Source: Cyanophora paradoxa CCMP329
Taxonomy: Eukaryota; Plantae; Glaucophyta
Reading direction: 5' to 3'
Assembly: GCA_004431415.1 (NCBI GenBank)
Contig: QPMI01000253.1
Span: 1-28,531, forward strand
DNA length: 28,531 bases
Shown: piece by piece, positions 3,698-26,642 of the stretch
Numbering within the stretch: position 1 is the stretch's first letter
Layout of the letters: the number at the start of each line of letters is the position of its first letter
Translations under genes and position numbers: made by a program
Notes under the pieces: model-generated
What the model was told of the DNA's origin: nothing
What the model saw: only the letters and a program-made list of their open reading frames with translations
The model's database searches: none

Positions 3698-3702
3698 GAG
3701 TT
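3698..3702. repeat. Left target-site duplication GAGTT
   Basis: GAGTT immediately precedes the left LTR and recurs at 21943-21947 immediately after the right LTR. Confidence 0.95.
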
Positions 3703-3952
3703 TGTCGGATGAGAGGATTCCACCGGTGCAGCGTCGTGCGGTCACGCACGGCTGTGGCTGTAGCTGGGAGCACAAGTGTCTATTCACCAGTGTACCCGTC
3801 CAGGGATCGCGTACCCAAACGGAAGTCGCGCCCGGCGCTAAGTCAGAATACAGAGAGTGCTAGAGCTAGCTGCTCGATAGCACTAGACTAGGGCTAGCGG
3901 CTACGCATAGACTACCGGCTAGCCTAATCCGAGGGAATCGCGGCACGCGACA
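3703..3952 (-). repeat. 3' LTR (250 bp)
   Basis: tgtcggatgagagg...cggcacgcgaca, near-identical to 21692-21942; 5-bp terminal inverted repeat TGTCG/CGACA. Confidence 0.97.
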
Positions 3953-3962
3953 CTCTCACTCT
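3953..3962 (-). other. Candidate polypurine tract
   Basis: Minus strand reads AGAGTGAGAG directly abutting the 3' LTR; short, with one pyrimidine. Confidence 0.65.
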
Positions 3963-4624
3963 GCATTACGGTGCGTCCTCGCACCGACCGCGCCAGCGAA
4001 CGTCGAGTCTGCATGCTCGACGGGGTCCACCACCGCCGGGTGTGCACCAACGCGGCAGCGACAGGCGCGGCGAGTGAACTCCTCTCGAAGTAGAATGTCC
4101 GTCATCAGCAACCAGATATGCCAGGTAGCATAGCTCGCGACCGAAATAGGAGCCGATACAGCATGTGCAGTACTAGGCAACCCAGCCAAGCTCGAAAGAT
4201 GAAAAGCATAAAAATCGGAAACCCCCCAAAAGCTGGCCAAACTCGCTCCAACGCGAGAGCCGAAGGAGAGTGGCACGGATGGGAAGTTTCACCGCCTCGG
4301 GAAGAAACCAACGAGGAGGTATCCGGGCCGCCCATCAGCCACGAAAGAGCGGGCACGGCTTGAGCGGACCGCCGACACACCTGCTCTCGGGCCAGATGTG
4401 CCAGCAAAGCTCACGCCAACACTCTTTTTCAAGCTCGTGGCCAGGCTCCAGAAAAGTGAACGAAAGGCTCTGACGGCGCCGCTACTGATCGTCTCACCCG
4501 ACAAGACGGTGGCCCGACCAATAACGACCCGCTCCTCGGCAAGACTGAGGCAAAGCGAGCAAAGAAATCTGCCCCACGGCGCAAGCACAGCGATCGCAAA
4601 GGGAACGGCAATGGGACAAGCATC

Positions 4625-6140
4625 TCACAGGTCGTCGACCAAAATGGCGTCATCCATCTCAACCTCGTCGCCTCGGCAGCCGCTCGGGCCCTCGGCGTCG
4701 ACGTCAGGGGCGAGAGGTGAGTTTTGTTCTTGAGCGAGCGAGTCCGCGGTGCGGGTCGATCGCCGGCTCGTCAACGTTCGCGGCAGTCTTCCGAGGCCGA
4801 CCAACGCGAGGGCGGGCTTGAGACTCGGAGAGACGCGTGCGGAACGGAAGCATGCAGTCGATGTGGGCGACGGTCTCGCGCAAGGACGGGTACGGGCGTC
4901 GTCCTTGGCGGAGTAGGGCTTAGCCGATCCCTTGACCGTGTAGGTGTAACCGCCAGGGTTAACGCCGGTCACGGTGTAAGGCCCGACCCATGAATTGTAC
5001 AGCCCTTTGTTGTGTTCGCCCATCCAGCACAATACCTTGTCGCCAACCTCAAAGCGGCGACGATGAGGCGGGTTGCCGTGCGAGCAACCATGCGGTTCCG
5101 ATAGAACCGACGGTACTCGCGCGAGGCAGCGTCGGCGCTCGCGGCAGCGCGCGTCATCGCGAGAAGGTAATCGGCTGGGTGCGTGTGGTCGGGTTCACGA
5201 AGCGGACGCCGGCTCCGAAGCGCACTTCGCAGGCAGGTGCACTTCAGAACCGCGTGCAGGACCATTGGGAGAACCGGTGGCGGAGTGCACGGTGGTCCGT
5301 AACGCGAGAACGATATCGGCGTTGTAGAGAGGCCAGTCAGAGAGCGGCCGCTTGTGCTCACGGCACATGGCGTAAGCGAGAGTCTTGTAGACTCCGCCCA
5401 GGCGTTCAGCGCCGCCGTTCGAGGCGTGGTGTAGGCGCCGCGTGCACGAACGGGTGCCTTTCTCCTTGAAGAACGCGTTCACGCGCCTCCAACGAGTTGG
5501 ACCGCGGTCCGTAAGACGCGCGCGGGCACGCCTCGTGCATATAGAAGTCGATCGCGGTGGCGAGCAAGGCCTCGCCGAGATACGGGAGAGCGGTAGATAT
5601 AGCAGAACTTGGTGTACGCGTCGACGTACGCGATGATGTATCGCGAACCGTCTTCGTGCATATCCAAGTGGAAGATATCCACCTGCACAGTCTCCTTGCC
5701 CGAAGCTGTATCACCTGAATGGCGTACGGCGGGCTTCGCGGCCTTCGCGAACTGACAGTGCGGGCACGACGCACAAAGCGAGCGATGGAGGCGTACATGC
5801 CAGGCCACCAGAACCGCAGGGCGATCGACGGGCTATCACGGGCGCGCCTCGATGGGCCCAGCCTCGTGATAGGCGTAGAGCACCTGTCGATCCAAGCGTC
5901 CGGCAAGACGGTAGAAACCGGCCGCAGGGACCAAGGGTTGCGCTCGATGACGCCGTCGTCGGCCAGGCTGAACTCGCCGGCCAGGCGTGCAAAGCGCTCC
6001 TTGGCCCGCAGGCAGTGAGCGCAGCTGGGCGAGCAGAGGTCTGCGTCGCGCCTTGAGCCGCGGGTGCAGACAGTTGGGTTCTCGCCTCTGTGTGGAAGGC
6101 GAGAAGCTTCTTGCAGAAGGAATCCTCCTTCTGAGCGCGA
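4625..6140 (-). CDS. Pol: integrase (HHCC zinc finger, DDE core, GPY/F motif); frameshifted in this read-out
   Basis: AQKEDSFCKKLL; VLYAYHE; RFWWPGMYASIARFV; SCPHCQ; VQVDIF...YIIAYVDAYTKF; SNGGAER; DWPLYNADIVLALRTTVHSATG; FEVGDKVL...WVGPYTV; TGA at 4627-4625. Confidence 0.9.
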
Positions 6141-7539
6141 GCAGACGCTCGCGCCTCTCGTCGGGAACATACGGCGCAGCGCGTCGGGGAGCGCCCGTCG
6201 ACGGCTGGCGAGGGTCCGCAGGCCACGCGTCGAGGACGGTATCCACGAAGACCGGCTTGCACGGCGGGCGAACGTCCGGCCTCTAGGGTCGAGTTCTACC
6301 CACCGCTGCGGGCAGCGGTCTCGGCGGCGACCGTCTCGGGCTCGAGCGGGCGGCGTCGTCGGGAGCCTGCCCGCGGGCAGAGGGGCGACCTCGAGCCCGC
6401 GCGCTGGCTTGGGGTCGGAGGGACCGGTCGGACGCGGATCTGGTGACGAGCAGTCTCGGGGAGAGCGAGCGCCGGCGCGGAGGCCCGGGAGGCGGCTCGC
6501 CCTCGGGTCCTCGGCTCCCACTCAATATGGACCGGCACCGGCGATCTGAGGGGTCGACCGGGAACGCCAGTGGCGCGTGTTGTACTCGTCTCGAGGCTGC
6601 CGCCTCAAGGCGGGCGCGAGGGAAGAGCGCGTCGGGATGCAGGGGCCGCGCTCAGCAAATCCCTTGGCGCCCACCGACGGGCCCGGTTCTGAGCGCTTCG
6701 GTACCCGCTCCGCAAGAGCGAGGGAAGCCGTCGGCGTCGCAGGCGTCGGAGGGCCAGGCCCTTCCGGCAACGACTCGTCGTCGATCTCGCCGAGCCTCGG
6801 CCTCTGCGTGAGCGTCCTCTAGCAGCGCGGCCGGGCGCCAGGTCGCCCTCAGGGCGTCGGGCATCTCCGCGTCCGAGGGGCCTCGCGCTCTTCGACAGCG
6901 GCGCCGGTCCGGCTCCGTCGTTTCGGGGCGGCGAGACCGATTCTGGCGCGGGAGCGCAAAGCGCTCTGGGCGGCCCGCGCTCGCTTGCGCGTGGCGGCGT
7001 CGGTAGCCGAGGCGGAGGCCTTGGCCTCAGCGAACCAGCCGACGCAGCAAGCTTGGCGAGCTCGCGGGCAGGCGTCGCGGCGCGCGCTCTGGCGGCGGGG
7101 CTCGGCGTCGGAATCTGTTTCCGCAGCACCGCCAGCCTCGCCTCAGGCTCGGGCGCGGGCGCTTCAGGGCGCCGGCGTCGGGCCGGCCTCGGAGCACTGG
7201 CTGGTACAGGGGCCGCGACTCCTCCTCTGCATAAGAGGAGCGGCCGTCGGGGAGGAGGGGCGCTCGCAGGCGCCGTCCGGGCGCTCGGCGCCTGGCGGCT
7301 CGGCACCCTCGCTGGGGCTTCCGCGCGGAAGCCGGCGGAGTTGGCGAGCTGGCGCAGGCCGCTCGGTCGGGCCAGCTGCATCCTAAAGATGCCAGCGAAC
7401 GTCGGGATCCTCAGCTCAGCCCCTACAGCGTACTGCGGGATGCGAAGCCTCGGCGCCTTGTAGGCGCGGGCTTGACGAGGAACCGTCGGCACCGCCTGCT
7501 GCCAGACGGGTGGTCCTTAGGGAGACGCGAGCATGCGTC

Positions 7540-7900
7540 AGGACCCCCGTTCTGCTTGCCGGGGCGTAGACGATCTCAAAGTCGTAGGCCTGCAAGAGCA
7601 GGGACCAGCGACCGAGGCGACCCGTCGTCGGTCCAGCGTTTCAGCCACTGGAGGCGTGGTGTCGGTCCGCACCAGGAACTGGGGCCGCCCAGCAGATAGT
7701 GGCGCCAATACTTAATGGCCCAGACTACTGCGAGGCACTCCAGCTCCGTAGCGGAGTAGTTCATCTCGGCCGCAGCAGCGTGCAGCTGATGAACGCGAGC
7801 GGCCGCTCGACGCCTTTGTCGTCGCCTGGCTCAGAATCGCGCCGATAGCGTAGGTGCTAGCGTCCGTCTGGAGAATGAAGGGCTTCGAGAAGTCCGGGAA
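7540..7900 (-). CDS. Pol: RNase H
   Basis: FPDFSKPFILQTDASTYAIGAILSQ (TDAS 7856-7867); NYSATELECLAVVWAIKYWRHYLLG; LQWL; LQAYDFEIVY. Confidence 0.93.
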
Positions 7901-8960
7901 CCGCAATATAATATCGCGGCCCAAGAGTTCTTTCAGCTCCTTAAAGGCACGGTCGCGGGGCCGTCCTCTGGCCAACTCCAGGCGGCGTCCTTCAATAGAA
8001 GGCGCTGCATGCGTGCACCACTTTGGAAAAGTTCTCAACAAAGCGGCGGTAGTAGCCGGCGAGGCGAGGAACGAGCGGAGCTCGTCCGCGTTCTTCGGCG
8101 TCTGCCAGTCCGTGATCACCTTGGTCTTCGCAGGGTCCTGGCGGATCCTTCGGCGGAGATGCGGTGGCCGAGAAGGTCGATTTCAGGCACGCAGAAGCGG
8201 CATTTCGACGGCTTCAGGCGCAGGTTCGCCTTAGAGATCGTCTCGAAGAGCGCCTTCAAGTCTAGAAGGTGCTGATCGATGGACGGAGAGAAGACCGTGA
8301 TATCGTCGATGTACGCGACGACACAGTGGTCAGCAAGGGCCTAAGATCGCAGTGATCGGCGGGAGAAGGCCGCGGGCCATTGGTGACCCAACGGCGTAAC
8401 TTTCCACTGGAAGTGGCCCAGGGGACCACGAATGCAGTGTAAGCTCGTGAGCCGGGGTGCAGAGGCAACTGCCAGAAGCCGGCAGTCGCGTCGGCAGTCG
8501 AGAAGACCATCGAGCCGCGGAGGCGCTCGAGCTGGTCGTCGATGCGGGGCAAGGAAACACGTCCCGCTCGGTGATCTGATTCAGCCTCCGATAGTCGACA
8601 CAGAAACGCCAAGTGCCGTCCTTTTTGGGGCCAACACTACCGGCGAGCCATATGCCGCTTGGAGGGCTCGATCAGCCGAGCTCAAGGAGTTCTGAATTTC
8701 CTTGCGGGCGTGTTCCTCGCGTGCGGGTTCATACGCCGCGGAGGCGTGAACACCGGAAGGCGAGTCGTGAGTTTGATCACGTGCTCGTAATAGAGCAGGT
8801 TGCTGGTGCCCTCTTGGCCTCGACCTTGTCTGCGAAGACATCCTTGTAGCGCGCAGGAGCGCGTGAAGTTCGGCTTTCTGCGCCGTCGTGATTGACGGGT
8901 GAGAGCCGAGCTCAGGAATCTTCTTCAGCAGCTCTTGCCACTCCTCCTCTGCATTAGGCA
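7901..8960 (-). CDS. Pol: reverse transcriptase and connection domain
   Basis: [25 protein letters not shown]; [28 protein letters not shown]; AYIDDI (YIDD 8302-8313); LRLKPSKC; DLLGH; [18 protein letters not shown]; [10 protein letters not shown]. Confidence 0.95.
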
Positions 8961-9689
8961 CCGGCCGCGGTGCCTCAGCGGGCTTCGCGTCGGGTGCTGC
9001 AGTCATAGGGGTGGGGCATCGGGCCGGCCGAAAGCGAGGCTGTGACCACACTCTGGGGTGGGGCCTCGGCGTCGGCGACCGGTGCGGCCTTGCGGACCGT
9101 AACGTCGCCGCGCATGGCGCGGACTGCATCGAGCAAGTCGCGCTCCGCTTTTTCGGAGAGACCGGGAAGGTCGAGCGCAGGTGGCGTCGCTGGGACGGCC
9201 ACTGCCTCGACTGCGGCGACGAACTCGTCGACCGAAGGGCCTGTGATCGGGGCCGGCGTTGGGGACTCGCTTCGTGACGACGTGCTCATAGCATCGTCGT
9301 CGAAGCTGATGATGCTCATAGCATCAAGGTCTGCAACGGCGGTCGGCTGTGTCGAGGGCAGCTCGCCAAACGTGACGACTATATCGTCGACGTCGTAGGG
9401 CGGTGCGCGGGGTGGGTCGGCGGCTCCGCAGGCGCTGCGCTAGATAGTGCGCGCTGCTTTTCCGCCTCATCTACGACAGAACGTAGGGTGGAGATTATTT
9501 TCTCAACGTCTTTGGCGGCTCATATGCCGCGCCAAGCATGCGTGCTTTTCTATTAAAGTGGCGGAGTCCAGTGCGGCGTTTGGCAGCACGATTCGCAGCC
9601 GGCGAATCAAGAGGTCTGTCAATGCACTCGCACTACAAGGCATTTGCTCAGGTTCGTACTCAAATCACCAGGCGGTAGGGCGACCGCCG

Positions 9690-9800
9690 AAGCGACCGCT
9701 ACTACCGATCCTAGCGGCAGGGTTACCGGCTGCCGGCCAGGATTGCACAACCGCACGTGAAACATTTTGTCTCCGGGTGATTATGCAGCTGGTAAGGGCA
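9690..9800 (-). other. Post-protease dUTPase-like remnant motif in Pol
   Basis: FHVRLCNPGRQPVTLPLGSVVA resembles the V-x-N...V-x-L-x-x-G-x-x-V-A motif that often follows the protease in Ty3/Gypsy polyproteins. Confidence 0.45.
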
Positions 9801-10029
9801 GAGTACGCCCAAGGCTTGCGGGACTCCGGCGACGGCTCGACGTAGAGGTGCGGCAACTCACGCGTTGCCGGGCCCTGCCCATTGAGCGTGCATGGGACGA
9901 GGCCTCTCCGACGGGAGCTTTACTGGTCCCAGGACTCGGACCAGGATCCCAAGCTGGTCCGGAGCCGAAAAGGGACGACGACTTCGCGGTGCAGGTGGTC
10001 ACGGGCCCGGAGGCACCACCCGGACAGCG

Positions 10030-10352
10030 TCGTGTCGATCTGGCCATGGACGGCCTGGATCGCGTCCAGGCCGAGCAGAATATCCGGCTCAACGCCCATG
10101 GCGCCGCGCGGGACGACGAAGACGCGGCGGCAGAAGCGGAGCGAGCCCAGGACGAAGACTACGTCGGCTCGGCGACAACGAATTTTGTCCCGGTCCATGA
10201 AACCGCGGACTATCGTGTGGCCCTCGACGTAATTGACTTCGTCGGCGGCAGGCGGTCGAGGACTTCCTGGGAACTACAGTTCCCTGGGCGCCCGTGTCGA
10301 CAACAATGCGAGCGGGCCGTTCGGCGCCGGAGCGGCCGTTCGGCAGGCGCAT
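10030..10352 (-). CDS. Pol: retropepsin aspartic protease
   Basis: ARIVVDTGAQGTVV (DTG 10290-10298) and downstream PDILLGLDAIQAVHGQID. Confidence 0.9.
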
Positions 10353-10399
10353 AGCAATGCTGCCGTGGATGTGCAGTGTCTTTGGCCGGAAGAATTCCA

Positions 10400-13300
10400 G
10401 GGCCCGTCGCGCGGGAAGCTAGGTCGGCGCGGCGGACGTGAATTCTGGTTCCGGCGGCGCGGTGGACCCGACAGGTCCGGCGCGCTCGCGGGTGGGGATG
10501 GGGCCGGGACTGGCGAGCCGCGGCTCGCTCGGCGACTCGGCGCTGCTCAGCCTGGTCGGCCAACGGCGAGGGCTTGGTCGCTTGCGCGGGCCCGGGCCGT
10601 GGCGGTTGGCGTAGAGCAACTCGTCGCTGGGCGGGTCATAGCCGGCGCGCGTTCCAGCGGCGTCTCCTCTGCCGGGCGGGCACGGCGAGGGACGGGCGGT
10701 TTTGGAGCCAGGGCGTGGCCCGCGGGCATGAGAGCTTCCTCGTCGGAGGTCAGGCCCTCGGGGTAAATGATCGCGGCGGCCTCGAGTGCGTTCTGCGGGG
10801 CGAACGCCGCTGTCGGCGCTGAACCCGAGAACCACGCGCGAGTTGGCCGTGGCGGGGCCTTATAGCCCGTTTTGCGCATCGAGATGCCGTAGCGGTCCAT
10901 GATCGCCTGATGCACCGCGCGTAAGGCGGGCTCCAGGGTTTTTGGATCGACTTGCAGCATTTGCGCGGGGTTCGACAGCCAGTTGAAGACCAGCACGGTC
11001 GAGCGCGGCCCGAGTTTGTGCAGCAGGCGGCGGGCCCAGGCCGGCGCGGGCTCGCGGCTCTTTGGTGGGGCCGGAGCGGGCGGCGCGGCTGGCGCCGACG
11101 GCGCGACCGTCTGAGCAGGCGGCTCGTGGGCAACCGTCTGGACGCGGCGGATCGAGATGTACTTCTCGTCCGCCGGCACCGGCACGGCGGCACGGACCGA
11201 CGCCGGCGTATGCAAGCGGGCGGGGAGGTCGCGGGGCTCGCGGGCTTCTTGCCCACGGTGCGCCGGCGCCTCTGCGACAGTGTATACCGCGAAGAAGGGC
11301 TTCGGGTGGGCCTTTGCTTCAGCCTGCATCGCCACGCGAGCCTCGTGCTGGCGCTCGCGCTCAAGCAGGGCGCGCCAGTCTTTGGTGCGATCGAGCGTGG
11401 CCTGCAGGGCTTCGAGGTCGGCACGGGGCCCGTCTGGAAGGAGCGAGATCATCATGCCCGTCTCTCCCGGGGAGAGGCTGATCTGCATATCGATGCCGGC
11501 CCGGAGGGCGCGGCAGACGTCTTCCAGGGCTCGCCGAGCAGCCTGCTTTGCCTGGGCGAAGGCTTCGTCTGAGACCTTCGGGGCGCCACCGGGCTTGGCG
11601 CGCGTCTCGGCGTGGCTAGCGGCGGTACGGATTTGGCGCTCGACTGTTTGAAGCCAAAGCCCCAATTCCGTGACCCCTTGGCTCCGGACCCTTACGTCGC
11701 GGCAGCTCGAGCACTCGCGCACAAACTGCAGGAGGCCCACTGCTGGGACGTCGGCCTGGGGGTTGAAAGTCGTGGCGGCGGAGGCGCGCGGCGCGGCCAC
11801 TGAGGCGCGCGGCTGCTCCGGCGTCGACTGGTCTGCGCGCGGCGGCTCGGCCTGGCTCGCACGCGATGACCGCTCCTGGGCCTGAGAGATGGAGGCGCGA
11901 CCCTCCGCAGGCTTGGACGGCGCCGCCGACTGCGGACCGGCCTCGCTCTGCCCCTCAGGCCCCTCTAGAAAGGGCCGCGGGCGCTCGTCGCGTCCGCCCG
12001 TCGGCGGCTGCCCGCCCGATGGCGGCGCGGCGGTGCGGGCCGAGGACGACGCGGACTGAGCGTCCATCTGGTTCTGGAGCTTGATCAGGACCAGCGCGGT
12101 GGCCTGCTCAGCTCGCGCGGGCGCCGAGAGCGAGTCTGGCATCTCAGCGTACTGCGCCTTCCAGACCATGTCGAAGAGCTCGCGCAATGTGGGCGAGCAG
12201 CCTCGCAGGCGGGCGTCGTTCTCGTGCCGCTTGTACGCAGCGTCTACGGCACCGCGCGGCGGGTCCGGCGGGCGGCGAGAGGACTGGCTGCTGCGAGGGC
12301 TGCGGCGGTCTCGCGGCGAGGCGCGGTCGCGCGAGCCCTTCTTCGAGCTCTTGCGCCGCTTATCGTCATGGCGGGGGCTCCGGCTCGGGCTCCGATCGCG
12401 CGAGCGTGAGCGGGAGCTAGAGCGGGACGGTGTTCGGCTCCGGCGGCGTTCCCGCGAGCCTCGGCGAGGACTCCGCCTGTCGCGGGTGTCGCGAGCCGTG
12501 GACCGTCGGCTCGGCGGGCTGCGGTCGCGGCGCGGCGGCGAGCGATCACGGCGGTCCGGGGAGCGGCGGCGGGAGGCCTCGCGGTCCGGCGGTCTGGCGA
12601 AGGGCGTCGGAGCCCTCGCGATCGCGGCGTTCCATCGAACGGCGGGACGCGGCGGCGCCCGGGACGGCCGGCGGGCTCCGGGAGCGCTCGCGGCGCGTGG
12701 AGGGGCCCCGCGTCTCGCGCCTGTCTGGGGTGCGAGAGCGGCGACTGGACGGGGCTCGGCGCGGCTCGGGTGAGCGGCGCTGAGACGAGGCCCGATCAGG
12801 GGTCCGGCGGGCTTGCGACGCGCGGCTGGCCGTCTCGTCCCGGCGGCTCGAGCTTGCCTCGGCCTGGCGGCTCGAGCTGGGCGGCGGCATCAGGGTCCGA
12901 GAGGAAGTCTCAGCCGGCGGGGCTTGGTCTTGCGGGGCGCCCTCGGCGATCCGCTCGACCTTCACCTTCCCGTCCGAGATGGTGACGCGCATAGTCTTGG
13001 GGTCGTACCCCTGCTGCCGCGCGAGGAACGTATCCAGCCCGAACGGGTCGTCCGGGTCGGCCGGGTTTGTGCGGGCTGCGCCTGGCCACCGCCGCGGTCG
13101 CCGCCACGGTCACGGTGGCCTCGGCCGTCGCGACCGCGGTGCCGGCCGCCCTCTGGTGACCCTGACCGCGGCCGCCGCGGCCGACGGCCTGGCCTGCGTT
13201 GCGCGGGCTGCGCCTGCTGCGGCGCCGCCGCGGCGCGGCGGTCTGCGCGGCGGCCTGCGCCGGCGCGGGCGCCGACGTGGTGGCGGAGGGCGCCGCCTCG

Positions 13301-16300
13301 GCGGGGTCATCCGAGAGCCCGCCGACGATGGTGGAGGGCGGCTGGAACCGCACGCCCGCCCACGTCGCGCGAACCGCCCCCTCGTAGATCGGCTGGTACG
13401 GCGTGCGAACCAGGAGGCTTTCGGCTTCCTTATCGGCGACGGCCGTCGCGGTCAGACTGCGCCGGGCTGAGGGCGCGGCGCCCTTGTTCTGGACCGCGTC
13501 CCACATCATCGCCGGGCGCAGCGCCTCAACGTCCCAGTCGGGAAGTTCAGGATCGTCCGTCTCCCAGTCGATCGGACGCGCGAGGCGGATCGCGACGTTC
13601 AGATCAGCGTAGAGCGAACGGAGCATAGTCTCGAACTGAGGCCGCAGGGAATAGCCTCATCGGTAAAGATGAGCCCCAGCGGAAAGTTCCCGGGACAGTT
13701 TTCTAGCTCCTCGGCGGCGCGGGCGGCCTCAAGGTGGCGCTGTATCCCACTCTTGCCCCCGGCGCCAAGGTCATCGCCAGAGGGCCACGCGTCCTCGGCG
13801 CCGGCCATCGGGGGCGAGCCGAGCTCAAGGCGCTGGTACCCAAGGCCGTGCGGCATGTTCGCGAGGTACGCGCGGATGCCGTCCGCCAGCGCGCGGGCCT
13901 CGGACTCGGCGCACTCATCCTCGTCATAGTGCGCAGGAGGGCCCTGAAGACCTCGGCCACGTTCTGGGGCATGGCGGCGTTCAGGGCGCGCAGTTGTCCG
14001 CGCGCTGCGCGAGCAGCGGGATGCGGGGATACTGGAAGCCCTGGAGCATTGCGAGCAGGATCCGCCCACAGATCGCTGCGCGACCCTCGTGGTCCGGCAC
14101 GACCGCATTGTTCGGGCCGAACTTCCACGCGAGCGTGGGTGGCCGTCCGGATACGTCGGCCTCGCATCCGCGTCGAAGACCTTCTTGCCCTGAGGCAAGA
14201 CGTCCGACCCGCGGTCCGGCTTGGCCGTCGGCTTAGTCAGGAAGGCCTCGTGAATGAACACCATCAGACCGTCCGGCACCACACAGCGGAACGAGTTCAA
14301 CACCTTGTTGAAGTCATCCATGTGTTCGGCGACCGCCTGAGCGATCTCAGGGACGTAGTCAGCCGGGCGTTCCGACTCGACGTCCATGGCCGCAGCCGAC
14401 AGAAAGTCGTCAGCCCAGTGCTGGCTGCGGAGGTGCTTGCCCGGCGCGTGGCGCTGGAAGAAGCGCGCGTGCCAGGCCAGCGTGAAACCGATGGCCGTCG
14501 CAAGGACTTCCTCTTCCGCCGGGATCGGCGCCCAAGGGCACGTCTCCGGAGGTGAGTTCGGGAAAGGCGGCAGCTCGTAACCGAACGCGGTGACGAGCCG
14601 CGGGTTCGCGTGACTCTTCTTGGGCTGGCTAGCCAGCTGGGCGACTGTCACCGCGAGCCACAGCTTCTTGTTTTCGCGCTGGCGCGGCGCGCCCTCTGCG
14701 ACATCCTTGTCGCAGGCGGCGTTCGGCGCAGGCGTGGCCGTGCCGGTCACGAGACGAGGCGCGTAGATACGCCGCGTCTTCAGGCGACCCTCAACGTTCT
14801 CGACGCGCTTGTCAGCGAGCGGGCGCAGCAGGGCCAGCACGGCGACGTCGCGCGCGAAGCGGGTCGAGAATGGCGTCCTGGCGTCCTCCTCGTTCGGGTC
14901 GGCAATGTTACCGCCCAAGACTGAGGTGTGCAGGGTGGGGCGCTCGGGGTGCGGCATGTACGGCGGCGGGGCGTTCCGCGCGCCGCCACCTTCGTGGAAG
15001 AAGGCGGTATACAGCACCGCGAGACCTGGCCTAGGGTCGAACACACGGGCACGTGGGCAGTGCCTCGTGCGTGAGATCCCAGGCGCCCGCATACGTCGGG
15101 ACGGCAGACTGTGCGGTACGGGTCCCGACCGCGAGGTACTGCACGATGTCCAAGCTGACGCCGCAGGCAGCGTGCGGGAACGCAAGCCCTGCAGGTCGAA
15201 GAGTTCCGGGTCCTCGTCGAACGGCCGCTGAGGCGGGCCTACGAGCGAGAACCAGTTCACTATGCCGCGCGCGGCGGGGCCGACGCGCTTAAGCATAGTC
15301 GAGCACAGCTCGCCCATGTGCTGGTCCTGCAGCGCGAGCACGTCGATGTTGTACTCGTCAACGTTGCCGGCGTGCTGCCAGCGCAGGGGTAGCTGATCGC
15401 GGGCAGCGTCGCCCACTCAGTGAACCCTGGCTCATAGCATTCCAGGGGCCGGAAAAACGCGTGTTTCCGGTCCATATACTCGCGCAAGAGCTTGTAATCG
15501 TTGGCGTACGTCGGGTCCGCCAACGAGAACAACGGCCGCGGCTGCCAGTCCTTGTGCGGCTCGAACGGCACGTGGGCCGCCGCGGGGATGGCAGCCGGCG
15601 CTTCTTCCTCCTCGCCCTCTTCCTCTTCACTCTCGACATGATCAATGTCGAGAGGATCGAGGCGGGGCTCGGGCTCTGTGTCAGCGCCGTGGCTGCTCAC
15701 GAGCGCGTCGTCGAACGTGAAAGACTGCTTCGCGGCGTGACGCTCGAGGGCGTGCAAAACCCTCTCCTGGAAGGCCGCGCGCTGGGCGGTCAGGGCCAAG
15801 CCCCGGTGCGGGTCGCTCTCGGCGGCTTCCTCCTGCGCACGCGTCCCTAGCCGCAGGTGGCGGCGTAGCCAGCGGACCCCGTGCGGGAACTCTAGGCCAG
15901 CGCGGTCTGCGGATGGGACAGTTGCCCGGCCGCCTCGGCACGGAACATGGTATGAGCACGCAGGAGATGCTGCGCCCACGCCGGCGGAATGACGGCCGAG
16001 TTCGGGTTGAAGCGGCCCCGTGAGTCCACCGCGGGAGGCGCGTGGTGGGGATCGCCAACGCATAGTCAGGAAATGCTCCAACTGCTGCTCCGTCCACTCA
16101 TGCAAGTGGAACGGAAGGTCGTTGGAGTGGGGCGTGACCGGGGCACGGAGGCCCAGCGCGATCATGAAGAGCTCAAACGCGGCCGCGTTCAGCCGCGCGA
16201 GGCGGATAGTGCGCTCGGCCCTAAGTGCAACGCGTCCGCCGGCGGCACCTCGTGCGGCACCGGCGGGCCGTCGAGGCGGCTCTGAATGGGCGTGCCCTTC

Positions 16301-19300
16301 TCGCCCGTGAGGAACGCCTTGAGGTGCGGGACCCGCAGATCAGCAAGGGTGCCCTTCAGCGCCTCATAGGGGATGTTCCAGCGGCGGGCAAGTTCCGCCC
16401 GGGCCGTCATCGGCCAGTCGGCAACTTGCCTCCCTCGCAGAGCTGCGGAGGGCAATGCGGCACCGCGAGGAGGCCGTCTTCCTCCTCACCCTGCCCCGGC
16501 GGGCGCTGCGGGTTCGAGGCCCTGCGAGCCACGCCCGCGGGTGCTGACGCGCACGACCCGTCCCGCGGCCACGCTCGCCGCGACGGGCGGTCTGCCGGGG
16601 GGCCGGTGCCGTCGCGCGCGCGAGATCGAGCGGCGGCTCGCTCAGGCGGGGCTCCACAGGCGCGGGTGCAGGGCAGGCGGCGTCGGCGCGGCGGCGGGGC
16701 GCGGCGCCAGTGGGCTCGCAAGCGGCGGCCATGTCACCGCGGCATGCAAGGTCACGAGCTTCGCCGTCGGTGCAGGCGGCGGGACAGGAGCGGGCGCTGG
16801 CCGGGCGGACCGCATCGGCGCTGGCGTGTCCTTGGCGAGGGCACTTTCACGGGCGGGCGCGGCGGCGGGCAGGCCTTAGCCTCCCTGATCGTCGCGCTGA
16901 CGGCCTTCGCCGTGTAGGCGCCCGTCGTGTCCGACGCCGGCTTCGGCGTGGTGGCAGGTCGTGGAGCGGAGTGGGGTGCGGCTGCCCGCGTCCGTGCGCC
17001 ACTTCTCCACGAGCGCAATCATGTCCTTGACCGCCTCGTCATTGAAACCGGCCTGCTTCTTCAGCAGCCGCCGGAATAAAATGACGAGGTGGCCCGGTCG
17101 CCTGCCTGGGCCCCTCGATGTACCGGAGCAGCTCCGCGGCCCGGCGGAGCCGGGACCGTGCGGGCCCAGGCTGCATCGCACAGGGCGGTGAGTGGCGGCT
17201 CGGGCCGAGCTGGCTCAGCACGTAGAGCTCCTCTGGCACGATCGTGGGCAGCTGCCCGCCTCGCGTCGTGCCGTGCAGGGCAGCTGCGTGGAGCGCGTGA
17301 TCGGGCGCACGCGGCCGACCTCCACGTGCTAGGCTCCGTCCCTGCAGGTGCGGCCCATGCAGCCAGGCATTGCACAAGGGCAGGTCCGGAGGTGCAGCAC
17401 GCGGGCGGCGGCGACGCGGGGGTCCACCGGAACGCGCTCCACCGCGCAGGGCTCGCCCTCGTGCACGAACGGAAAGGCGGGGCACGGCCGTCGCGGTACG
17501 CAGTCAGGCGCTCCGCGAGCGCTGCCCTCAGCCACCCTCGGTGTCCCGATCCGAGCGGAGCCGCGCCGCCCGGGATCGAATCTCGACGGAGAGAGCGAGG
17601 ACGGCGAGCGAGTGTACAGCCGCCGTGAACTCCGAGTCCGAGGGGACGAGAAGGTCCCGTCGGCCGGGCGACGGCGCTCTTGTGGGCGTCGTGGGACGGC
17701 GCGGCCGCCAATGCAAGCCACGGCCCTCCACTGGATCGCGTGCTCGAGGGCTAGCAGGGCGAAGCCGTAGGCGTCGACCGCGAGTCACCATGAGCGGCTC
17801 GGCGAACTTAAAGAAGCGGCCGAGGATCTTCTCGACGGCGCCGGCGGTGCCCGGGGCACCGTAGTCGACGCGGTGCAGGTAATAGCCGCAACGGTCGCGG
17901 CGCACGCGAGGCGGAGGCGGTCCTGAGCCGGCAGCAGCTCGCTCAGCTCGACCAGCTGGCGGCGCCCGACACCGTCATCTCGTGCGGCTCGAGAGAGGCC
18001 GCGCGGGTGAGTGCTGGCCTATGCTCCAGTGGCGGCGGTACGGATCCAGCCAGCCGCGTGGCCACGCACTCGTCCCAAGCTTCGCGAGCTTGTGAACGTC
18101 GGGCTCGACGGCAGGGCGGCCCTCGGACGTGAGGCCTCGGCGTGCGGCCACGCGTGCCCCCGGACCACTTCGCGGCGACGCGAGAGGCCTGGTGCGTGAG
18201 GCTCATGATCTCATAATAGTGCGTCGGCCAGGCGTGGGCCAGCGTGTCCTGGGACAGCGGGTCATGCCCCAGCATCTGCAGGAACGCAGTGGGGAGGGCC
18301 CGCGAGTCGAGGTACGTGCTCTCGGTGGCGAGCGGCTGAGAGAACGCCGCAAGCAAGAAGGAGAGCGTCTGGCGGGTGCGGCCGGGCAGCGGAACGCAGT
18401 GGCATACCACTGCTCGTCCCGGACCTCGATCAGCCCCTCGCTCACAGTGCAGCCGCAGTGAGTCTCGCACGGCGCTGGGTACAGGAACGCCGCGCGGTCG
18501 AGCGGACCGACGCGGCGCCCTTCAGCTTGTGCGCGTCCACGTTCCAGAGAGGAACGGCCCCAGCTCGTGCTCGCGGCCTTCTCCGGGCGAGCTCGACAGC
18601 TCCAAAGTGAGTGAGGTCGAGGCCGAGCTAGCGGCGAGGAGGCGAGCGCGTTGAGGCGCAGGGTCTCCTTGGCCGCTACGGCCATGTCCTCGTCAGCTAG
18701 CGAGGCACCATCGTCGGTCACCTCGAGGCTCGCCACGGTCTCGGCCCCGAAGAGTACTCCAGGCAGCAGCCCACGCCGGCGCAGGGTCCGCCGGAGCCTC
18801 AGCGGCGGTGGCCTCGGGGACCGACTCGGCGGGAGCGAGCTCCGTCGCAGGCTCGGGACCCTCGCTTCTGCGTCAGCGCCCTCGACCTCCGTTGGGTCCG
18901 GGGCGGCCGCCAAGAGGAGTGCGACCTCCTCAAGGCGGCGTCCACGATGCCGGCGGCGAGCTCGCGGGGCTAGAAGTCGGCGCGGGCGTCGGCGCGGGAC
19001 CCTTCGCTTCTGCGTCAGCGCCCTCGACCTCCGTTGGGTCCGGGCGGCCGCCAAGAGAGTGCGATTTCCTCAAGGGCGGCGTCCACTGCGTCGAACGCGA
19101 CCTTCTTCTCCCCCTCGTCCAGACCCGACTCGGCGGTCGGCAATAGATCCTGCGCCGCGCGCGGGGCCGCTCTCGAGCTCGGGCCCGGGGGACAGTCGGG
19201 GCGGTTCTCCGCCGTCAGCTGCGCCACCGCGACCGTGAAGGCGGTGGCTGCGGCGGCGACCGTGTCGAGCGCGGGTCCCTCCTGGGGGTTCTTCAGCGCG

Positions 19301-19600
19301 GCGGCGTTTGCCACGGCGGCCGCGATGAAGACCCGCAGGGTGTCCTCCAGGGTCGCCTCGTCGCTGCGCACGATGCGCACACGGTACACGTGCTTCGCAC
19401 TCCGGAGCTCGGCCGGGAGGCGCAGCGACGGGCAGACCCCGTGTGGGCTAGCGGTGCCCCCAGGAGGGCGCCCGACGCTGCAGGTGCAGCGCGGACGACT
19501 GCTCAGAGGGCGCGCGCGATCTGAATCGTCGCGGGGTCGTTGGCGCCGGCCTGCCCCCTCTGCTCGGCGAGGGCGCGGCGAACGGAGGCCTGGATCTGCT
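10400..19600 (-). CDS. Large extra coding region of the retrotransposon between gag and protease, function unknown
   Basis: Chain of minus-strand ORF fragments with protein-like composition (10547-12187, 12546-12992, 12910-13626, 13599-15416, 15260-16165, 16189-16455, 17528-17905, 17943-18470, 18203-19054, 19015-19389). Several join by single-base shifts, and no AT-rich gaps or intron-like blocks were seen. Confidence 0.75.
18854..19086. repeat. Internal ~92-bp direct duplication (18854-18945 / 18995-19086)
   Basis: gggaccc(t)tcgcttctgcgtcagcgccctcgacctccgttgggtccggg...gcggcgtccac occurs twice with a 141-bp period; encodes approximately DAALEE(V/I)ALLLAAAPDPTEVEGADAE. Confidence 0.92.
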
Positions 19601-21530
19601 CTTCAACGCGGGGCAGGCCGACGCGCGGTGGCCAGGCTCCCGCAGTTGTAGCAGTTGCGTTGATGGGGCCGGTGCCCGGGGACCGGGCTCGTGCGCCCGT
19701 TCGCGCCCGGGCGGGGTAGAACCGCGCTTGGGATCGCCGGCTCCCGCGCCCATCGGCCCGCGCGCTTAGTCGGCTGATCGCCGACCACTCGGGCAAGGGC
19801 CGCGGGTTGGTCCGGCACTCAAACGAGTAGTGCGATTCGCCGCAGTGGCACGGCCGCCGGGCTTCTCGGGAGGCCCCGGGCCTTCAGAAAATCTTTGATC
19901 TTTGCTGATAGACCGGGTCATCGAGGCGAGGCGGCGGTGCGGACGCCGACGGGTAGAGCGCGCGGACTACGGCGAGGGCTCGTCCTGAGCAATGAGCTGC
20001 AGGAACAAGACGACCTCGGCGTTCTGATCCTCGCCGTCGTCTGCGTCCCACCCGTGGCCTCGAGCTCTGCGAGCTCGGCCTCCGTCACCGTCGTCGCGAA
20101 CATGATGCGCGTGCCCGCGCCGGCGCCCGCGTTCGAGCGCGAGGGGACAACGGGAACGGCCGGCGTGTGCGTGGTCGGCGGCGCGCTCTGCGGCGTGCGC
20201 GAGGCAGCCGTGGGCGCCTGCAGCGGTGTTCCGCGCGCTCCAGCACCAAGGCCGAGCCAGGGACTTTAGAGATATCGACGTCCCAGGCGCCCAGTTCATT
20301 GGTGCGCTTGGTTACAAGGTCGATGACCGCAGAGGTCCCGTGATCTCGCGTCCGCGATCTTCTGCGACAGCTCGTCGTAGATCTTCCGAGCCGTGGCGAA
20401 GTTCGTGATCATGTGCCGCGATCGGTGTCCGAAATCTCGGAGTCTTCGAAGTCGCGGCACTGATTGCGAGTGCGGCGCTTGAGCATTTGCCCGCGTGGCG
20501 CATGAGTGCCATGAGCGGCGTCTCGTGCGCTTCGCGGCACTCCGGGATGATGCTCAAGTCGAGGATCGGCGGTAGAACGCCTCCGGCGCCTCGCCACGTG
20601 CGGCAGGTCGAGGAGCGCCTTGTACCGGTCAGGGTTCCGCATCTCGCGTCATCTTCGAGACGGCGCCTGATCGCGGTGTACGTGACCGTGAGGGCGGTCC
20701 GCTGCAAGCCCTCCTCGGCTTGCGCGATCTTCTCGTCGAGCGTCTCAGGATCGCGACGTCCACGAGTCCTCCGTGCTCGTGCGCGCGCGCTCAGCCCGGT
20801 ACGCCCTCAGCTTCTCGAGCTCCGCGCGTGTCGATCTGCTCGGCGCTCTGGAACAACGAGATGTTCTGGCGCACGGGGTGCCGTGATCTAGCGTGCTGAG
20901 AAGAGCCCACCAGTTCGCTTCTGCACTTCGATGTGTGCAGTCGGCGAGACACTAAGCAAGTCCTTGCTCATGCTCGCGCAGCTCTCGAACTGGCGGAGGT
21001 GGTCTGAACCGTGCGCTGATCGCTGCCCGGCGGCAGCTTCGGCAGGCTCTGGATCCATTGCAAAACATTTGATCCGCTCATAGAGTCCATGTCGGCGGCG
21101 CCACGCGCGTGCGCGGCCCGGACGACGAACTCCGGGAGGCTCCGGCCCGAGGACATTCTCAGGTCAAGCGGCGACGTAAGTCACGCTAGTCCGTGAGAGA
21201 ATGTGCCTCGCTCGAGGTCCGAGGCCGTCGTGGTCCACAGCAGCGGCGAGCAAGCTCGGCTGCAGCGATTCTGGAGACAGCTCGGGCGCGCACGCCTCAG
21301 CCGTCGATCCGATCGCTCTTCGTCTTGTCCAGCACGATCGCAGCAGCCGGAGAAGGCTGCGTCGCGGCGAGTGACTGGCGACCGACCGGGAATAGCACCC
21401 TCGGGCTCGCACGGCAGCTCGCGCAGGCGGCGTCGACGAATCCGCCGGAATAGCACCCTCGGGTATTCGCGCGCGGGCCTGGCTTCCACGGGACTAAGTT
21501 CTGGTTCTTTCCAGAATGTTCGGTCGCCAA
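19500..21530 (-). CDS. Gag-like region with CCHC zinc knuckle(s)
   Basis: CYNCG(EP/SL)GHRASACP (C-x2-C-x4-H-x4-C once one missing base is restored, 19613-19653) and CHCGESHYSFEC (19815-19850); helical upstream segments (TLDEKIAQAEEGLQR). Start codon not resolved. Confidence 0.7.
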
Positions 21531-21679
21531 CTGCGGATCAGCCCGGAGCGGCGCAGGCGGGGCGCGAGAAGCGACCCACGACCTCTACCGAGGTCTACCT
21601 GCGCGCGGCTGAGCCGCGGTCGCCGAGCTGGGTCGGTTGCTGATGACGGTCGCTGATGATCGGGGTTCTAGCTCCGTGA

Positions 21680-21691
21680 GCCGATGGCGCC
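21680..21691 (-). other. Candidate primer-binding site
   Basis: Minus strand reads GGCGCCATCGGC immediately after the 5' LTR. It resembles (T)GG-C + 7-nt stem + GC of tRNA-Ser-type PBSs, but the initial T is absent. Confidence 0.4.
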
Positions 21692-21942
21692 TGTCGGATG
21701 AGAGGATTCCCACCCGTGCAGCGTCCGTGCGGTCACGCACGGGCTGTGGCTGTAGCTGGGAGCACAAGTGGTCTATTCACCAGTGTACCCGTCCAGGATC
21801 GCGTACCCCCAAACGGAGTCGCGCCCGCGCTAAGTCAGAATACAGAGAGTGCTAGAGCTAGCTGCTCGATAGCACTAGACTAGGGCTAGCGCTACGCATA
21901 GACTACGGCTAGCCTAATCCGAGGGAATCGCGGCACGCGACA
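21692..21942 (-). repeat. 5' LTR (251 bp)
   Basis: Near-identical copy of 3703-3952, TG...CA. Confidence 0.97.
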
Positions 21943-21947
21943 GAGTT
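21943..21947. repeat. Right target-site duplication GAGTT
   Basis: Matches 3698-3702 exactly. Confidence 0.95.
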
Positions 21948-22287
21948 CTAGGGTACGGTAGTAACGGCCTAACGCCCGAGTTTTTGTCTCTTGAATCGGT
22001 CAAGTCCTTTTTTGCGCAACGCCTTCCTTGATCATGAATGATGTACTACAGTAGATACCGGGTACCCGCCAGCGACGGGCTGGAGCCTGGCGGCCACGTA
22101 TGCGTGCATCATGGCACCACCTGCTCTGCACTGCAGCTGAGTCTGCAGTCGCCCCTGTCCGCTGCAGCTGCTGAACTCCCGCACACTGCCCCGCGCTCGT
22201 GCAGCGCGCTCGCCATCGGATCATCGCATGGTTCTGATTGCGGGCGGCAGGCAGGGCCAGCCGCAGCCGGCGGGTGGGGCGGCTGCC

Positions 22288-25200
22288 CTACTGGATGGAG
22301 AGGGTCCAGTCGGCGTCGACGGGGGCGGCCGGCTGCCGCAGCGTCAGCCGCCGCGCCGCCGCGTCGTACTCGAACTCGACAGGGTGCGGGGCCCCGCCGG
22401 CGACTGCGATGGAGGCGGCGCGGGGCGCGGCCGGCCAGCCCAGCACCACCACCCGCTCCACTACCGTCCCCGGCGCGAACGTCTCCTGCGCGGCGCGGCC
22501 CGCTCAGGCACGCCGTCGCCGGCGAGGGCGGGGGCGGGGGGCGAGGGCGCGGGGCGGACGGTGCGGGCGGGAGGGGGATCCGGCGCCGGCGGCCTTCGAG
22601 GTGAGGGCCTTGTCTGCGGGGCCGGCCCGGTGAGAATGGCGCGCGTGAGCGGGAGAAGGCGCCCGGCGGGCGGCCCACCGGCGAAGGAGAAGGCGCGGTG
22701 GATGAAGCCGCCGCTGCCGCACCCCGTCAGGCCCGCCGCGCGGGGGCGGGGCGGGGCGGGGCGGAGCGGGGCGGCACCGCTGGTAGGCGTAGGAGCGGCC
22801 GTCGTCGACGTAGAGCTCGCCCTCCGCACGCCCCTGCGCCCCGCCCCGCCTCGCTCGGCCCGGCCCCGCGCGGGCGCCGCGCCGCGCCGGGCGGGGCGGG
22901 GCGGGGCGGACGGCGGAGTCGAGGGCGACGAGGAGGGTGTAGGGGTCGGCGTGGGAGGCGGCCGAGGAGCGGCGCTGGCGCTCGCGGCGCGGCACGACGG
23001 AGCCGCCGCGCTGGAAGACCGGCACCACGTCCAGCGGCGCCTGCACCGTCACCGTCTGCCCGCCCGCCACCGCCGAGCCCTTCCAGTAGTCGTACCACGG
23101 CTGCAAGGGGCGTAAGGGCGGCGGCAGCGCGGGGGGGGGCGTGGAGGCGGACCTGGTCGCCGGGAAGGTAGACGGAGACAGAGGTCTGGCCCTCCTTCAC
23201 GGCCGGCTTGACGAGGATGTCCCGTCCCACCAGCCACTGGTCGTCCATCGCGAACGTCGCCGCGTCCGCCGGGTACTCCGCCCACAGCGGCCTGCCACGG
23301 CGCTCGGCGCGGCGCGCGGGCGGGGCGAGCGAGGGGAGCGGGGTGCTCCGCACCGCATCGGGGGCATGCCGGTGACGTGGGCGGCGCGGAAGAGGGTGTA
23401 CCAGTAGGGGAGGAGGGCGTAGCGGGCCTGGATCGCCGCCCGGATGTGCGACGTGTACGGCTCGCCGAACAGCCACGGCTCCCGCCGCTTCGTGTCTGGC
23501 GACAGCTCAGCCGGGGCCGGCGGAGCGGGGCGGGGCGGGGCACCGATGTGGGCGTGGCCGCGGAAGAAGGGCGTGAAGGCGCCTGCCTGGTACCAGCGGA
23601 CCATCAGCTCCGGGCCCGGGTTGTAGAAGAACCCGCCCACGTCCGCTGCGCGCGCGCGCGAGAGCGAGCGAGCCGCGTCGGCCGGGGCGGCGCGGAGAGG
23701 GGCGGGGGCGGCGGGGCAGCGAAGGCGGGGCGGACCGCCGGAGAAGACGATGCCGGAGAGGGAGAGGGCGAGGAGCATCGGGCTCGCCGCCTCCAAATGC
23801 TCGAACTTGGCCTGCGCCCCGAGGCTCGCGCACGCCCCGGCCCGGCCCGATGGGCCCCGGCGGGGGGCGGCGGCGGGGGGGACCTGGTTGTCGCCGGTCC
23901 AGACGGCGCCGTACTTCTGGGAGCCGGCGAAGAAGGAGCGGGAGAGGACGAAGGGGCGGTCCTGCCGCCCGCTCCGCCGCAGGTGGCCCTCGAACGTCGC
24001 CGCGTTCTGCGCACCGCCACCCGCCCCCTCAGAGGAGAAGGAGGGCGGGGGCGGGGGCGGGGGCGGGGGCGGGGGCGGGGGCGGGGCGGGGGCGGCGGGC
24101 CTGAAGGAAGCCGTACATGTTGTGGACGTCGCGGTGCTCCACGCCGCCCGCGTGCACCGCGTCCTTCGCCGTCTGCAGCTCCGGCCCGTTGAACTGCGTC
24201 GGCTGCGCAAAACGAGCTCAGGGGGGGCGAGGGGGCGGGGTGCGCGGGGCGGGGCGGGCCTCGTTCATGTCGTTCCAGGTGTAGAGGGTCTTGGTGGAGC
24301 CCTTGTACTGGTCGTAGGCGTGCTTGTCCGCGTACCAGCCGCGCACCTCCGGGCTCAGAAAGTCCAGGTACGACACCGAGCCTGCCCGCCCCGCCGCGCA
24401 GCGCGTCAGAGGGGCCAGGCGCGAGCGAGCGGGGCGGGCGGGCGGGGACGGGGGCGGGAACGGGTGCGCACCGGGCCAGCACCAGCCCTCGTAGTCGGAG
24501 CCCTCGGCGGTCTTGATGTAGTAGCCCTTGGAGGTCGCCTCCGAGTGGATGTGGTACCCGCTGTCCCGCTTGATATGCGGGTCGATGATCGTCACCATCT
24601 GCCCCCGGGGCAAGTCAGGCGCCGGCCCGCGGGGCGAGTGAGGAAGCGGGGCGAGCGGGACGGGCGGGGGCGGGGCGGGCCTTGCGGCCGCGGGAGGCGA
24701 GGTCCTCCTGCATGGCGGCGGGGTTGGGGAACTTGGTGGCGTCCCACGTCATGTACCTGCCCCGGCCCCTCAGCGGGGGCCGAGCGCAGCGGGCAAGGCG
24801 GGCTGGGGAGCGGGGGCGCGCTTCTTGCCGTCGGTGTGCTCGATGTCGAGCCAGAGGACGTCGTACGGGATGTCGTTCTCGTCGAAGCCCTGCGCCACCA
24901 CCACCTCAGCCCGGGCGAGAAGGGGCGAGGGGCCGGGGCGGCGGGTTCGGGCGGACGGCGTCGACGGCCTTGACGTCCTCCTCGTTGTTGTAGTTCCAGC
25001 GGCACTGGTGGTACGCCGTCGCGAAGTACTGCGGCATCGCCGGGCGGCCGGTGACGGCCGTGTACTGGCGCTGGACGTCGCCGAAGGAGGGCCCCATCAT
25101 GAAGAAGAGGTCCATCGCCCCGCTCTCCGCCATCCAGTGCGACTCGGGGCCCGGGCCGGCCTGGCCCCGGCAGAAGAGCGCGCCCAGCAGGCACTGCACC

Positions 25201-26398
25201 GGTCAGCCGGCGCGGGGCGGGGGCGGCGGAGCAGAGGGAGGGGCGGGGACCTTCTCGGCGGGCTGCTGGAGGACGTCGACGAACATCTCGCCGGCGTTGA
25301 GCCAGAAGACGGCGCTCGTCTTCTCCGCGTCGTGCCCCAGCATCAGCGGCACCGCCCCGTACAGCCCGATGTTGTTCTCCAGCTCGTACCTGCCCCGGCG
25401 TCGGCGGCGGGGCGCGGCGGGAGGGGAGTGGGGAGCGGCCCGCACTCGAAGATGTCGAGGGTGTAGAGGCGGTACGGCTCCGTCGACTCGCTCACGCCCT
25501 CCCCGCTGCCCCGCGCCCCGTCGCCCGCGCCGGGGCCGGGGCCGGGGCGGGCGCGGCGGGGGTACCGGGTGGGCTTGAGGGCCATGGAGGTGGCGCGCTC
25601 GGGGATGCCGTACACGTGCTTCGCCCCCAGGAACGTGAAATCGGTGCCCATCGACGCGGGGCCTGCGCATCCGGCCCCACCCCGCTCGCAACCGCGCCGC
25701 GCGGCGAGGCGAGGCGGGCGCGGCGCGGCGGGCGCACCGAAGGGCTTCTTGTCGGTGTGCGAGCCGAAGGACTCGGAGCCGGCGCTCTCGAGGCCGCTGG
25801 AGCCGTCGTCGGGGGAGTTGCGCGCGCGCTCCCAGTTGAAGAGGTTCCGCGCGTTCATCACGATGGCCGGGCCCTTCGGGCCGCTCACGGTCAGCCGGAA
25901 CGGCGAGTGCTCGATCTTCACCGACGAGGTGCCGGCGGTCACGACCGTCGCGCCAGCCTGCGGCGGCGTCGGCGGCGCAGGCGGGGGAAGTACTGGAAGG
26001 CCCGAGAGAGTTCGCACCTCAGCGGTCTTGGCGTACTGGGCGACCGATGCCTTGAGGTCCTCCTCCTGCACGACGACTGGCACCTCGAACCGCGGCCGCG
26101 CCGGGTTCACTTCTCGAACGCGCAGGCGGAAAGTGGCATCGCGGTAGGGCGTGAGCTCAAACTGCAGCTTGTTCTCCGCCTGCTCGCTGTGCACAAGCAC
26201 GCCGACTACACTGCTGCCATCGCCAGCGATGCTCTCAGGCAGCACGCTCCACTTGGACGGGTCGCCCGCCTTGTTGAAGCTGCGCTGGCGCTTGCAGAAG
26301 CCGGTATCGCCGCACTTGCGAAACTTGTTGGCTTCGAACGCACTCGCAAGGGCGAGGAACGCGACCAGGGCGACCAGCACCAGCGCCCCGCGACGCAT
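22288..26398 (-). CDS. GANAB: Glucosidase II alpha subunit-like (glycoside hydrolase family 31), ~21 exons
   Basis: Signal peptide then [14 protein letters not shown]; YGIPER; PYRLYTLD; YHQCRWNY; [18 protein letters not shown]; IIDPHIK; WNDMNE (nucleophile); HRDVHNMYG; AVWTGDN (acid/base); ADVGGF; FFRGHAH; GELYVDDG; ends DWTLSIQ* (TAG 22290-22288). Inferred introns: 26017-25958, 25737-25663, 25565-25506, 25445-25390, 25250-25194, 24956-24890, 24821-24757, 24680-24599, 24471-24382, 24259-24203, 24100-24007, 23883-23812, 23735-23646, 23543-23496, 23353-23292, 23152-23101, 22911-22834, 22777-22714, 22678-22614, and one ambiguous near 22590-22486. Confidence 0.95.
24043..24093. repeat. (GGGGGC)n tandem repeat inside a GH31 intron, G-quadruplex-capable
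   Basis: About 8 copies of gggggc on the + strand. Confidence 0.85.
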
Positions 26399-26642
26399 CT
26401 CGGATGGCCCCCGACGGTCCGCGGCCGACTTTCGATCTACTCCGCGTCGAAAGAAAGGGCCTCTGATTGTGCGCTTCTGTGTCCTGCTCGAGATTGTGTA
26501 CCCAGTGCGACGTGCCGTGCCTGTACCCCGCTGAGACGACTGATCTCAAAACCGTGCCGCAGCGCGCGTATGACACGACACTTCACGTTCTAAGACGCTT
26601 TAGCATCTTTTGCGTCAGCAGCATCATTTGCGTCAGTACGCA
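26399..26642. promoter_or_regulatory. Probable compact bidirectional promoter
   Basis: Only 244 bp of lower-GC sequence separates the divergent ATGs of the GH31 and F-box genes. Confidence 0.6.

Follow-up and report, generated by a model that had tools for sequence, protein, structure and literature searches.

A giant Gag-protease frame with conserved, element-encoded cargo in Ty3/gypsy elements of the glaucophyte Cyanophora paradoxa

A Ty3/gypsy retroelement of Cyanophora paradoxa carries 9.3 kb of coding DNA between its Gag zinc knuckles and its protease. The element occupies 18.2 kb on the minus strand of the window, the whole stretch of 28,531 nucleotides (contig QPMI01000253.1) that was analysed. 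We read the insert as conserved cargo, encoded by the element within its Gag-protease frame and likely consisting of particle-associated proteins that handle the 18-kb RNA; our confidence in this reading as a whole is about even. That one frame runs through Gag, two knuckles, blocks A to D and the protease to a stop is highly probable, and the assignment of the cargo to the particle or to RNA handling is tentative, slightly short of evenly balanced. The giant Gag-cargo design belongs to a lineage of element families in Cyanophora paradoxa, not to one copy.

The element and its enlarged coding frame

The element has LTRs with TG..CA ends and a target-site duplication within the 4-6 bp range, and Pfam searches of 129 minus-strand stop-to-stop frames recovered protease, RT, RNase H and integrase pieces in the PR-RT-RH-IN order of Ty3/gypsy elements. 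The assignment of the RT to the Ty3 type rests on a PDB sequence match of the sibling model P0029, not on a tree: Ty3 Gag-Pol is its best match (E 3e-97; next other protein 1e-48). Pfam found no chromodomain after the integrase in the window frames or the sibling pol models. Between the two LTRs (~250 bp) there are 1 substitution and 11 gap columns, a likeness by which the element appears young. No priming tRNA was matched to the PBS-like sequence, and the window holds no tRNA genes. An intron-rich host GH31 glycosidase gene at 22200-26545 (minus strand), presumably glucosidase II alpha-like, adjoins the 5' LTR, and a host F-box gene lies at 26604-28374 (plus strand).

For comparison, protein searches gave sibling gene models assigned to Cyanophora paradoxa by EukProt. 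The introns in these models were guessed and differ from copy to copy, so that the models show the order of the parts rather than exact proteins. The features of the element are listed below in coding order; identities are to family 2, a sibling family described later.

21692..21942, minus strand: 5' LTR, with TG...CA ends; GAGTT target-site duplication outside at 21943-21947
21674..21691, minus strand: PBS-like sequence adjoining the 5' LTR
19870..21156, minus strand: start of ORF1, N-terminal Gag region, colinear with P0005/P0025; 43% identical
19610..19850, minus strand: two zinc knuckles, Cx1Cx3Hx4C, then Cx2Cx4Hx4C
18670..19600, minus strand: cargo block A, an Ala-rich, likely helical stretch with acidic motifs; 52% identical
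16990..18670, minus strand: cargo block B, ~540 residues of globular composition; 54% identical
16460..16990, minus strand: Pro/Ala-rich linker; 37% identical
13330..16460, minus strand: cargo block C, ~1,030 residues, the sole cargo block with detectable homology in three families
12260..13330, minus strand: low-complexity tract, with an RGG box near 13180, then an Arg/Ser-rich tract
10400..12241, minus strand: cargo block D, short domains separated by Pro-rich spacers; short-read contigs place it in frame with the protease
9968..10400, minus strand: aspartic protease with DTG at 10298, the final domain of ORF1
9920..9974, minus strand: likely -1 frameshift signal, with C CCT TTT at 9974-9968, a hairpin at 9961-9937 and TAA at 9922-9920
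4625..9968, minus strand: ORF2 (pol), with a linker domain, RT (YIDD at 8313), RNase H, spacer and integrase
3953..3962, minus strand: short polypurine tract preceding the 3' LTR
3703..3952, minus strand: 3' LTR; GAGTT outside at 3698-3702

The first knuckle (CHCGESH..C) starts at 19850 and the second (CYNC..H..C) spans 19653-19613; PF00098 matched the knuckle in sibling models. Pfam returned no capsid match in Gag, where the knuckles are present, and we infer from its position that the N-terminal region (19870..21156) is the capsid. Block A holds a 141-bp tandem duplication at 18850-19103. The Arg/Ser-rich tract of family 1 has 29-30 RS/SR dipeptides per 150 residues.

The original prediction had placed ~3,100 codons between the knuckle and the protease, and the gap is borne out by the window's letters (9,315 nt, or 3,105 codons, from 19613 to 10298). 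Its statement that the insert shares the strand of Gag and pol also holds: all three lie on the minus strand between both LTRs. That the insert is intron-free is supported in block C, of which the sibling P0069 matches 929 residues without a jump. A codon model seeded on pol stretches only called 16% of the minus strand of 10400-19600 coding, rising to 58% after self-training, against 0% on the plus strand. Markov-resampled controls likewise gave 0% (10 without self-training, 2 with).

Set against the sibling proteins, the window's frame shifts are nearly all 1-2 missing letters, with a density of ~3-8 per kb in the cargo versus 9-11 per kb in RT-RH and integrase. At 10200-11200, 12/12 length differences from the short-read contigs of three DNA runs are single letters absent from the window, and the frame shifts are best read as long-read assembly errors. 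Contigs from these three runs span 30/30 bins of the element. Once an N had been set at every listed difference, block D could be read without a stop as far as the protease motif.

The end of ORF1 and access to pol

The original prediction missed a stop in the frame just after the protease, which puts the cargo at Gag level, not Pol level. ORF1 ends there, which makes the cargo a portion of a Gag-protease protein of ~3,750 codons; whether pol is reached by frameshifting or by splicing, the cargo precedes the control point. Under the slippery-heptamer rule for -1 frameshifting, the candidate slip site is C CCT TTT, one of 5 slippery-type heptamers in 17.7 kb, which encodes a conserved xPF in phase. 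An 8-bp hairpin starts 6 nt after it, and the -1 frame is open for 38 codons at this site. Sequence homologous to the pol starts of other families comes next in this region. Folding of the 63 nt downstream of the slip site is no stronger than that of shuffled sequence (z -1.1).

Sibling models end in the same place. P0069 and P0070 of family 1 and P0052 and P0058 of family 3 terminate 15-31 residues after xPF, the two family 1 models at the same residues as the window and the two family 3 models 31 residues past xPF. Among the family 1 models holding the protease end, none reads through without a predicted intron or break; in P0053 and P0054 of family 3, the stop is bridged by a predicted intron. 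On this sequence evidence, ribosomes probably enter pol by shifting to the -1 frame directly downstream of the protease. Splicing, as in Ogre, or read-through is a possible route, because the listed short-read contigs leave 9861-9952 uncovered. Alpharetroviruses have the protease at the end of Gag and make Pol through a -1 frameshift; the Cyanophora element resembles them in expression logic alone, with no env and no giant Gag in common.

Several smaller features were seen in and around pol. A short domain at its start (9600-9900) is shared with families 3 and 4, and we take it to resemble the dUTPase-like linker of other gypsy elements; GC3 drops to 0.48 at 9430-9516. The RNase H-integrase spacer, ~420 residues rich in Pro, Ala and acidic residues (window 6310-7500, minus strand), is present in all families compared at 32-68% identity and has no Pfam match. 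Past the pol stop, ~670 bp (3953-4620) are lower in GC, and in some contigs 4338-4545 is swapped for a different 204-bp stretch.

Sibling families, selection and copy number

Three sibling models together cover the design: P0025 begins in Gag and extends as far as block D, P0069 carries block C and what follows up to the protease, and P0063 continues from the end of C into integrase. Absence from sibling elements or termini of its own would speak against an insert carried by the element. Instead, the insert is present and colinear in the sibling models from Gag to protease, and no repeats bound it among those listed. On the matched diagonals, P0069 and P0060 show 0 residue differences from the window.

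Selection was assessed in a stretch of block D and in block C. In the indel-free stretch 10708-11185 of block D, 12/14 substitutions fall in third positions and 12/14 are synonymous (pN/pS 0.06, p 6e-6). In block C, pN/pS is 0.08-0.30, a rough value that sets contig-level nucleotide counts against protein differences and assumes that the contigs are of P0001 type. The low ratios indicate purifying selection, and together with colinearity in siblings and the lack of termini of its own they bear out the view of an element-borne protein. Between families 1 and 2, blocks A and B are 52-54% identical versus 37% for the B-C linker.

The depth in run X1 was 1,540-1,830 for the listed cargo contigs and 1,990-2,090 for the listed pol pieces, versus 72-108 for incidental contigs. 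A cargo depth near that of pol and far above incidental contigs points to many copies. Read literally, it would mean roughly 20, but depth does not measure copy number.

Family 2 (P0024, P0016, P0023) has the same order as family 1, with 43-54% identity over Gag and cargo (P0024 compared with P0025) and 46-54% over the cargo blocks. The enzymes are far closer, at 98% for RT and 96% for RNase H and the integrase core, whereas the pol linkers are 58-68% identical; here the pol of family 2 is that of P0035/P0031, set against P0029, and its linkage to the family 2 cargo rests on neighbouring gene numbers on two contigs. This pattern suggests that the enzyme cores may have been exchanged or homogenised between the two families.

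Family 3 (P0053, 4,924 residues; RT 75%) has 2,434 residues between knuckle and protease. Its cargo showed no homology to ours by blastp, HMM and free-end pairwise tests. A global comparison with the family 1+2 profile, however, scored block C at z 4.9 with 0/100 shuffles as good, a value inflated by block limits set by eye; Gag gave z 2.9, block B was not significant (z 0.5), and five wrong-block controls stayed at z <=1.4. A fourth pol family (P0043, P0041, P0049), with an RT 79% identical to that of family 1, is sister to family 3 in the tree.

Possible roles of the cargo

Neither Pfam, PHROGs, NCBIfam, PDB sequences nor the ESM Atlas gave a usable assignment of the cargo. Pfam gave nothing convincing for the knuckle-to-protease interval in the 129 minus-strand frames, and 70 plus-strand frames of the interval had zero matches. 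Against 1.84 billion representatives, block C had 16 matches: 2 come from family 2, the other 14 are 79-100% identical, and all are pieces of these element families. This outcome does not support the earlier suggestion of captured host genes. For block B, 7,996 scored candidates included 2 siblings and no match outside these families. Blocks B and C were the queries of these outside searches. Two cargo structure predictions had pLDDT 35 and 33, too poor for a comparison with F-type or gB-type folds. The Atlas leads for block C included ALOG, QRICH1 and Phage_int_SAM_1, all presumably related to tyrosine-recombinase DNA-binding domains, at scores of 0.77-0.79, where values under 0.9 are at chance level.

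We favour a role in the particle or on RNA because the position of the cargo implies capsid-level abundance and the RNA is ~18 kb and unspliced. Cargo and protease would be made about one-to-one with the capsid, in excess over RT and integrase. The protease may cut the Pro/Ala/acidic linkers and free blocks A-D; no cleavage site was identified. Blocks B and C might then be large particle proteins with a scaffolding or accessory role, the RGG/RS tract might bind unspliced RNA in an intron-dense host, and the cargo proteins might help to package and handle the 18-kb genomic RNA. The RS tract varies among families: family 3 has RGG between knuckle-like motifs, its best window holds 6 RS/SR dipeptides versus 29-30 in family 1, and the family 2 model P0023 has no RS tract.

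The main rival, which we consider rather unlikely, is that the cargo consists of host-manipulation or anti-silencing factors (chromatin, small-RNA or DNA-binding) placed in Gag only for abundance. Divergence of the cargo far faster than that of RT, RNase H and the integrase core would fit host conflict; yet fast divergence is not specific to the cargo, because Gag itself is only 43% identical between families 1 and 2, and selection within family 1 is purifying. The Atlas leads for block C point the same way as this rival but lie at chance level, and Pfam matched no catalytic or DNA-binding family in the cargo. It gains from two sources, by which Cyanophora paradoxa methylates its repeats, with 32% CpG methylation (PMC12344493), and the planarian Burro insert holds apoptosis and ubiquitin domains (PMC6431247). 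The size of the cargo would also suffice for an envelope or another exit or entry module moving the element between cells, and the corresponding place is taken by Env in Burro (PMC6431247) as well as in elements of nematodes, bryozoans and flatworms (PMC13524379). Against this improbable reading, no Env family was matched by Pfam, and no 19-residue window exceeds a Kyte-Doolittle hydropathy of 1.89, the best ones being Ala-rich. A simple hydropathy scan, not a dedicated predictor, thus gave no clear transmembrane helix; Cys is 0.9-1.1%, and N-glycosylation sequons number 0-1 in families 1 and 2 and 7 in family 3. A non-enveloped exit protein is a possible role.

A nested element, captured host DNA or an assembly artefact is largely refuted and extremely unlikely. 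The window is full of frame shifts and the sibling models are gene predictions with guessed introns, which could favour it. But the insert is in frame with the protease and, in the sibling models, with Gag; it is present in three families with synonymous-biased substitutions, lacks bounding repeats among those listed and transposon domains on either strand, and is skipped by 0 joints among the 15 of 43 listed. Beyond the favoured particle or RNA role, we speculate that blocks B and C could have an undescribed fold and act as shell or exit proteins, produced in a 1:1 ratio to the capsid. They would build an enlarged or double-layered, envelope-free particle for the 18-kb RNA, maybe moved between algal cells, and the whole Gag-cargo module would be swapped between families over a shared pol. 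We regard this extended picture as unlikely.

The closest precedent for the layout is Burro / GYPSM1 of planarians. Its giant polyprotein (4,873-5,140 residues) has Gag at the N-terminus and CCHC knuckles, and a long stretch in the same frame precedes the protease; that stretch holds recognisable BIR, ankyrin, MATH, BCL2, SUMO-like and Env domains, and the whole element is >30 kb (PMC6431247). The Cyanophora element shares the long in-frame region between knuckles and protease but has no known domain in it, lacks Env hallmarks, has 250-bp LTRs and lives in a glaucophyte. Pfam found no BIR, ankyrin, MATH, BCL2 or SUMO-like domain in the cargo (P0024, P0025 and P0018 to E 1; P0053 to E 0.1), and instead of a single frame through pol, ORF1 closes behind the protease, both in the window and in four sibling models. 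GAG-ENV-POL errantiviruses of nematodes, bryozoans and flatworms are also Ty3/gypsy elements with extra coding between gag and the pol enzymes; their insert encodes a glycoprotein of the gB type that has cysteine bridges and a signal peptide or transmembrane anchors (PMC13524379), whereas hydropathy, Cys and sequon counts gave no glycoprotein ectodomain, anchor or cysteine bridges in the ~3,100 residues of Cyanophora cargo. Plant Ogre/Tat elements owe their size to long LTRs, non-coding DNA and separate extra ORFs, with frames joined by splicing (PMC6317226). The Cyanophora element likewise has a GAG-PROT frame separate from an RT-RH-INT frame, but its extra coding lies inside Gag-protease, its junction looks like a -1 frameshift, and the second (archaeal-type) RNase H is absent from P0029, P0053 and P0063 by Pfam. 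A precedent, by description, for an accessory protein supplied by the element comes from Cer1 of C. elegans, whose CERV is made from spliced mRNA and is required for the export of unspliced genomic RNA (PMC10309623).

The available part of the C. paradoxa genome paper gives 1.77% LTR and 11.5% unknown repeats and does not describe such an element (PMC6704402). Our literature search, with supplements, Repbase and most subscription journals outside its scope, turned up no account of the Cyanophora elements; they may already stand in a catalogue. Among printed Gag-to-protease expansions this large we found only Burro, whose domains are recognisable, and the Cyanophora element follows the giant Gag-insert layout of gypsy elements in a host outside the animals, with cargo that could not be assigned. 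In this glaucophyte lineage, purifying selection maintains 2,400-3,100 residues of such protein at a position that would give capsid-level synthesis; ~2,000 of them are globular protein without known family. The elements offer a testable system for how retroelements pass the usual ~10-kb packaging limit, and some orphan gene models of Cyanophora paradoxa are retroelement cargo.

Two local observations concern block A and its border. Short linker motifs at 18700-19500 hardly change between families that are otherwise ~50% identical; they may mark cleavage sites, crossover points or RNA signals. At 19100-19723, contig depth is ~tenfold lower in runs X1 and X3, and the window's second knuckle and the start of block A differ strongly from P0005 and P0025; the window copy carries a minority variant of this segment.
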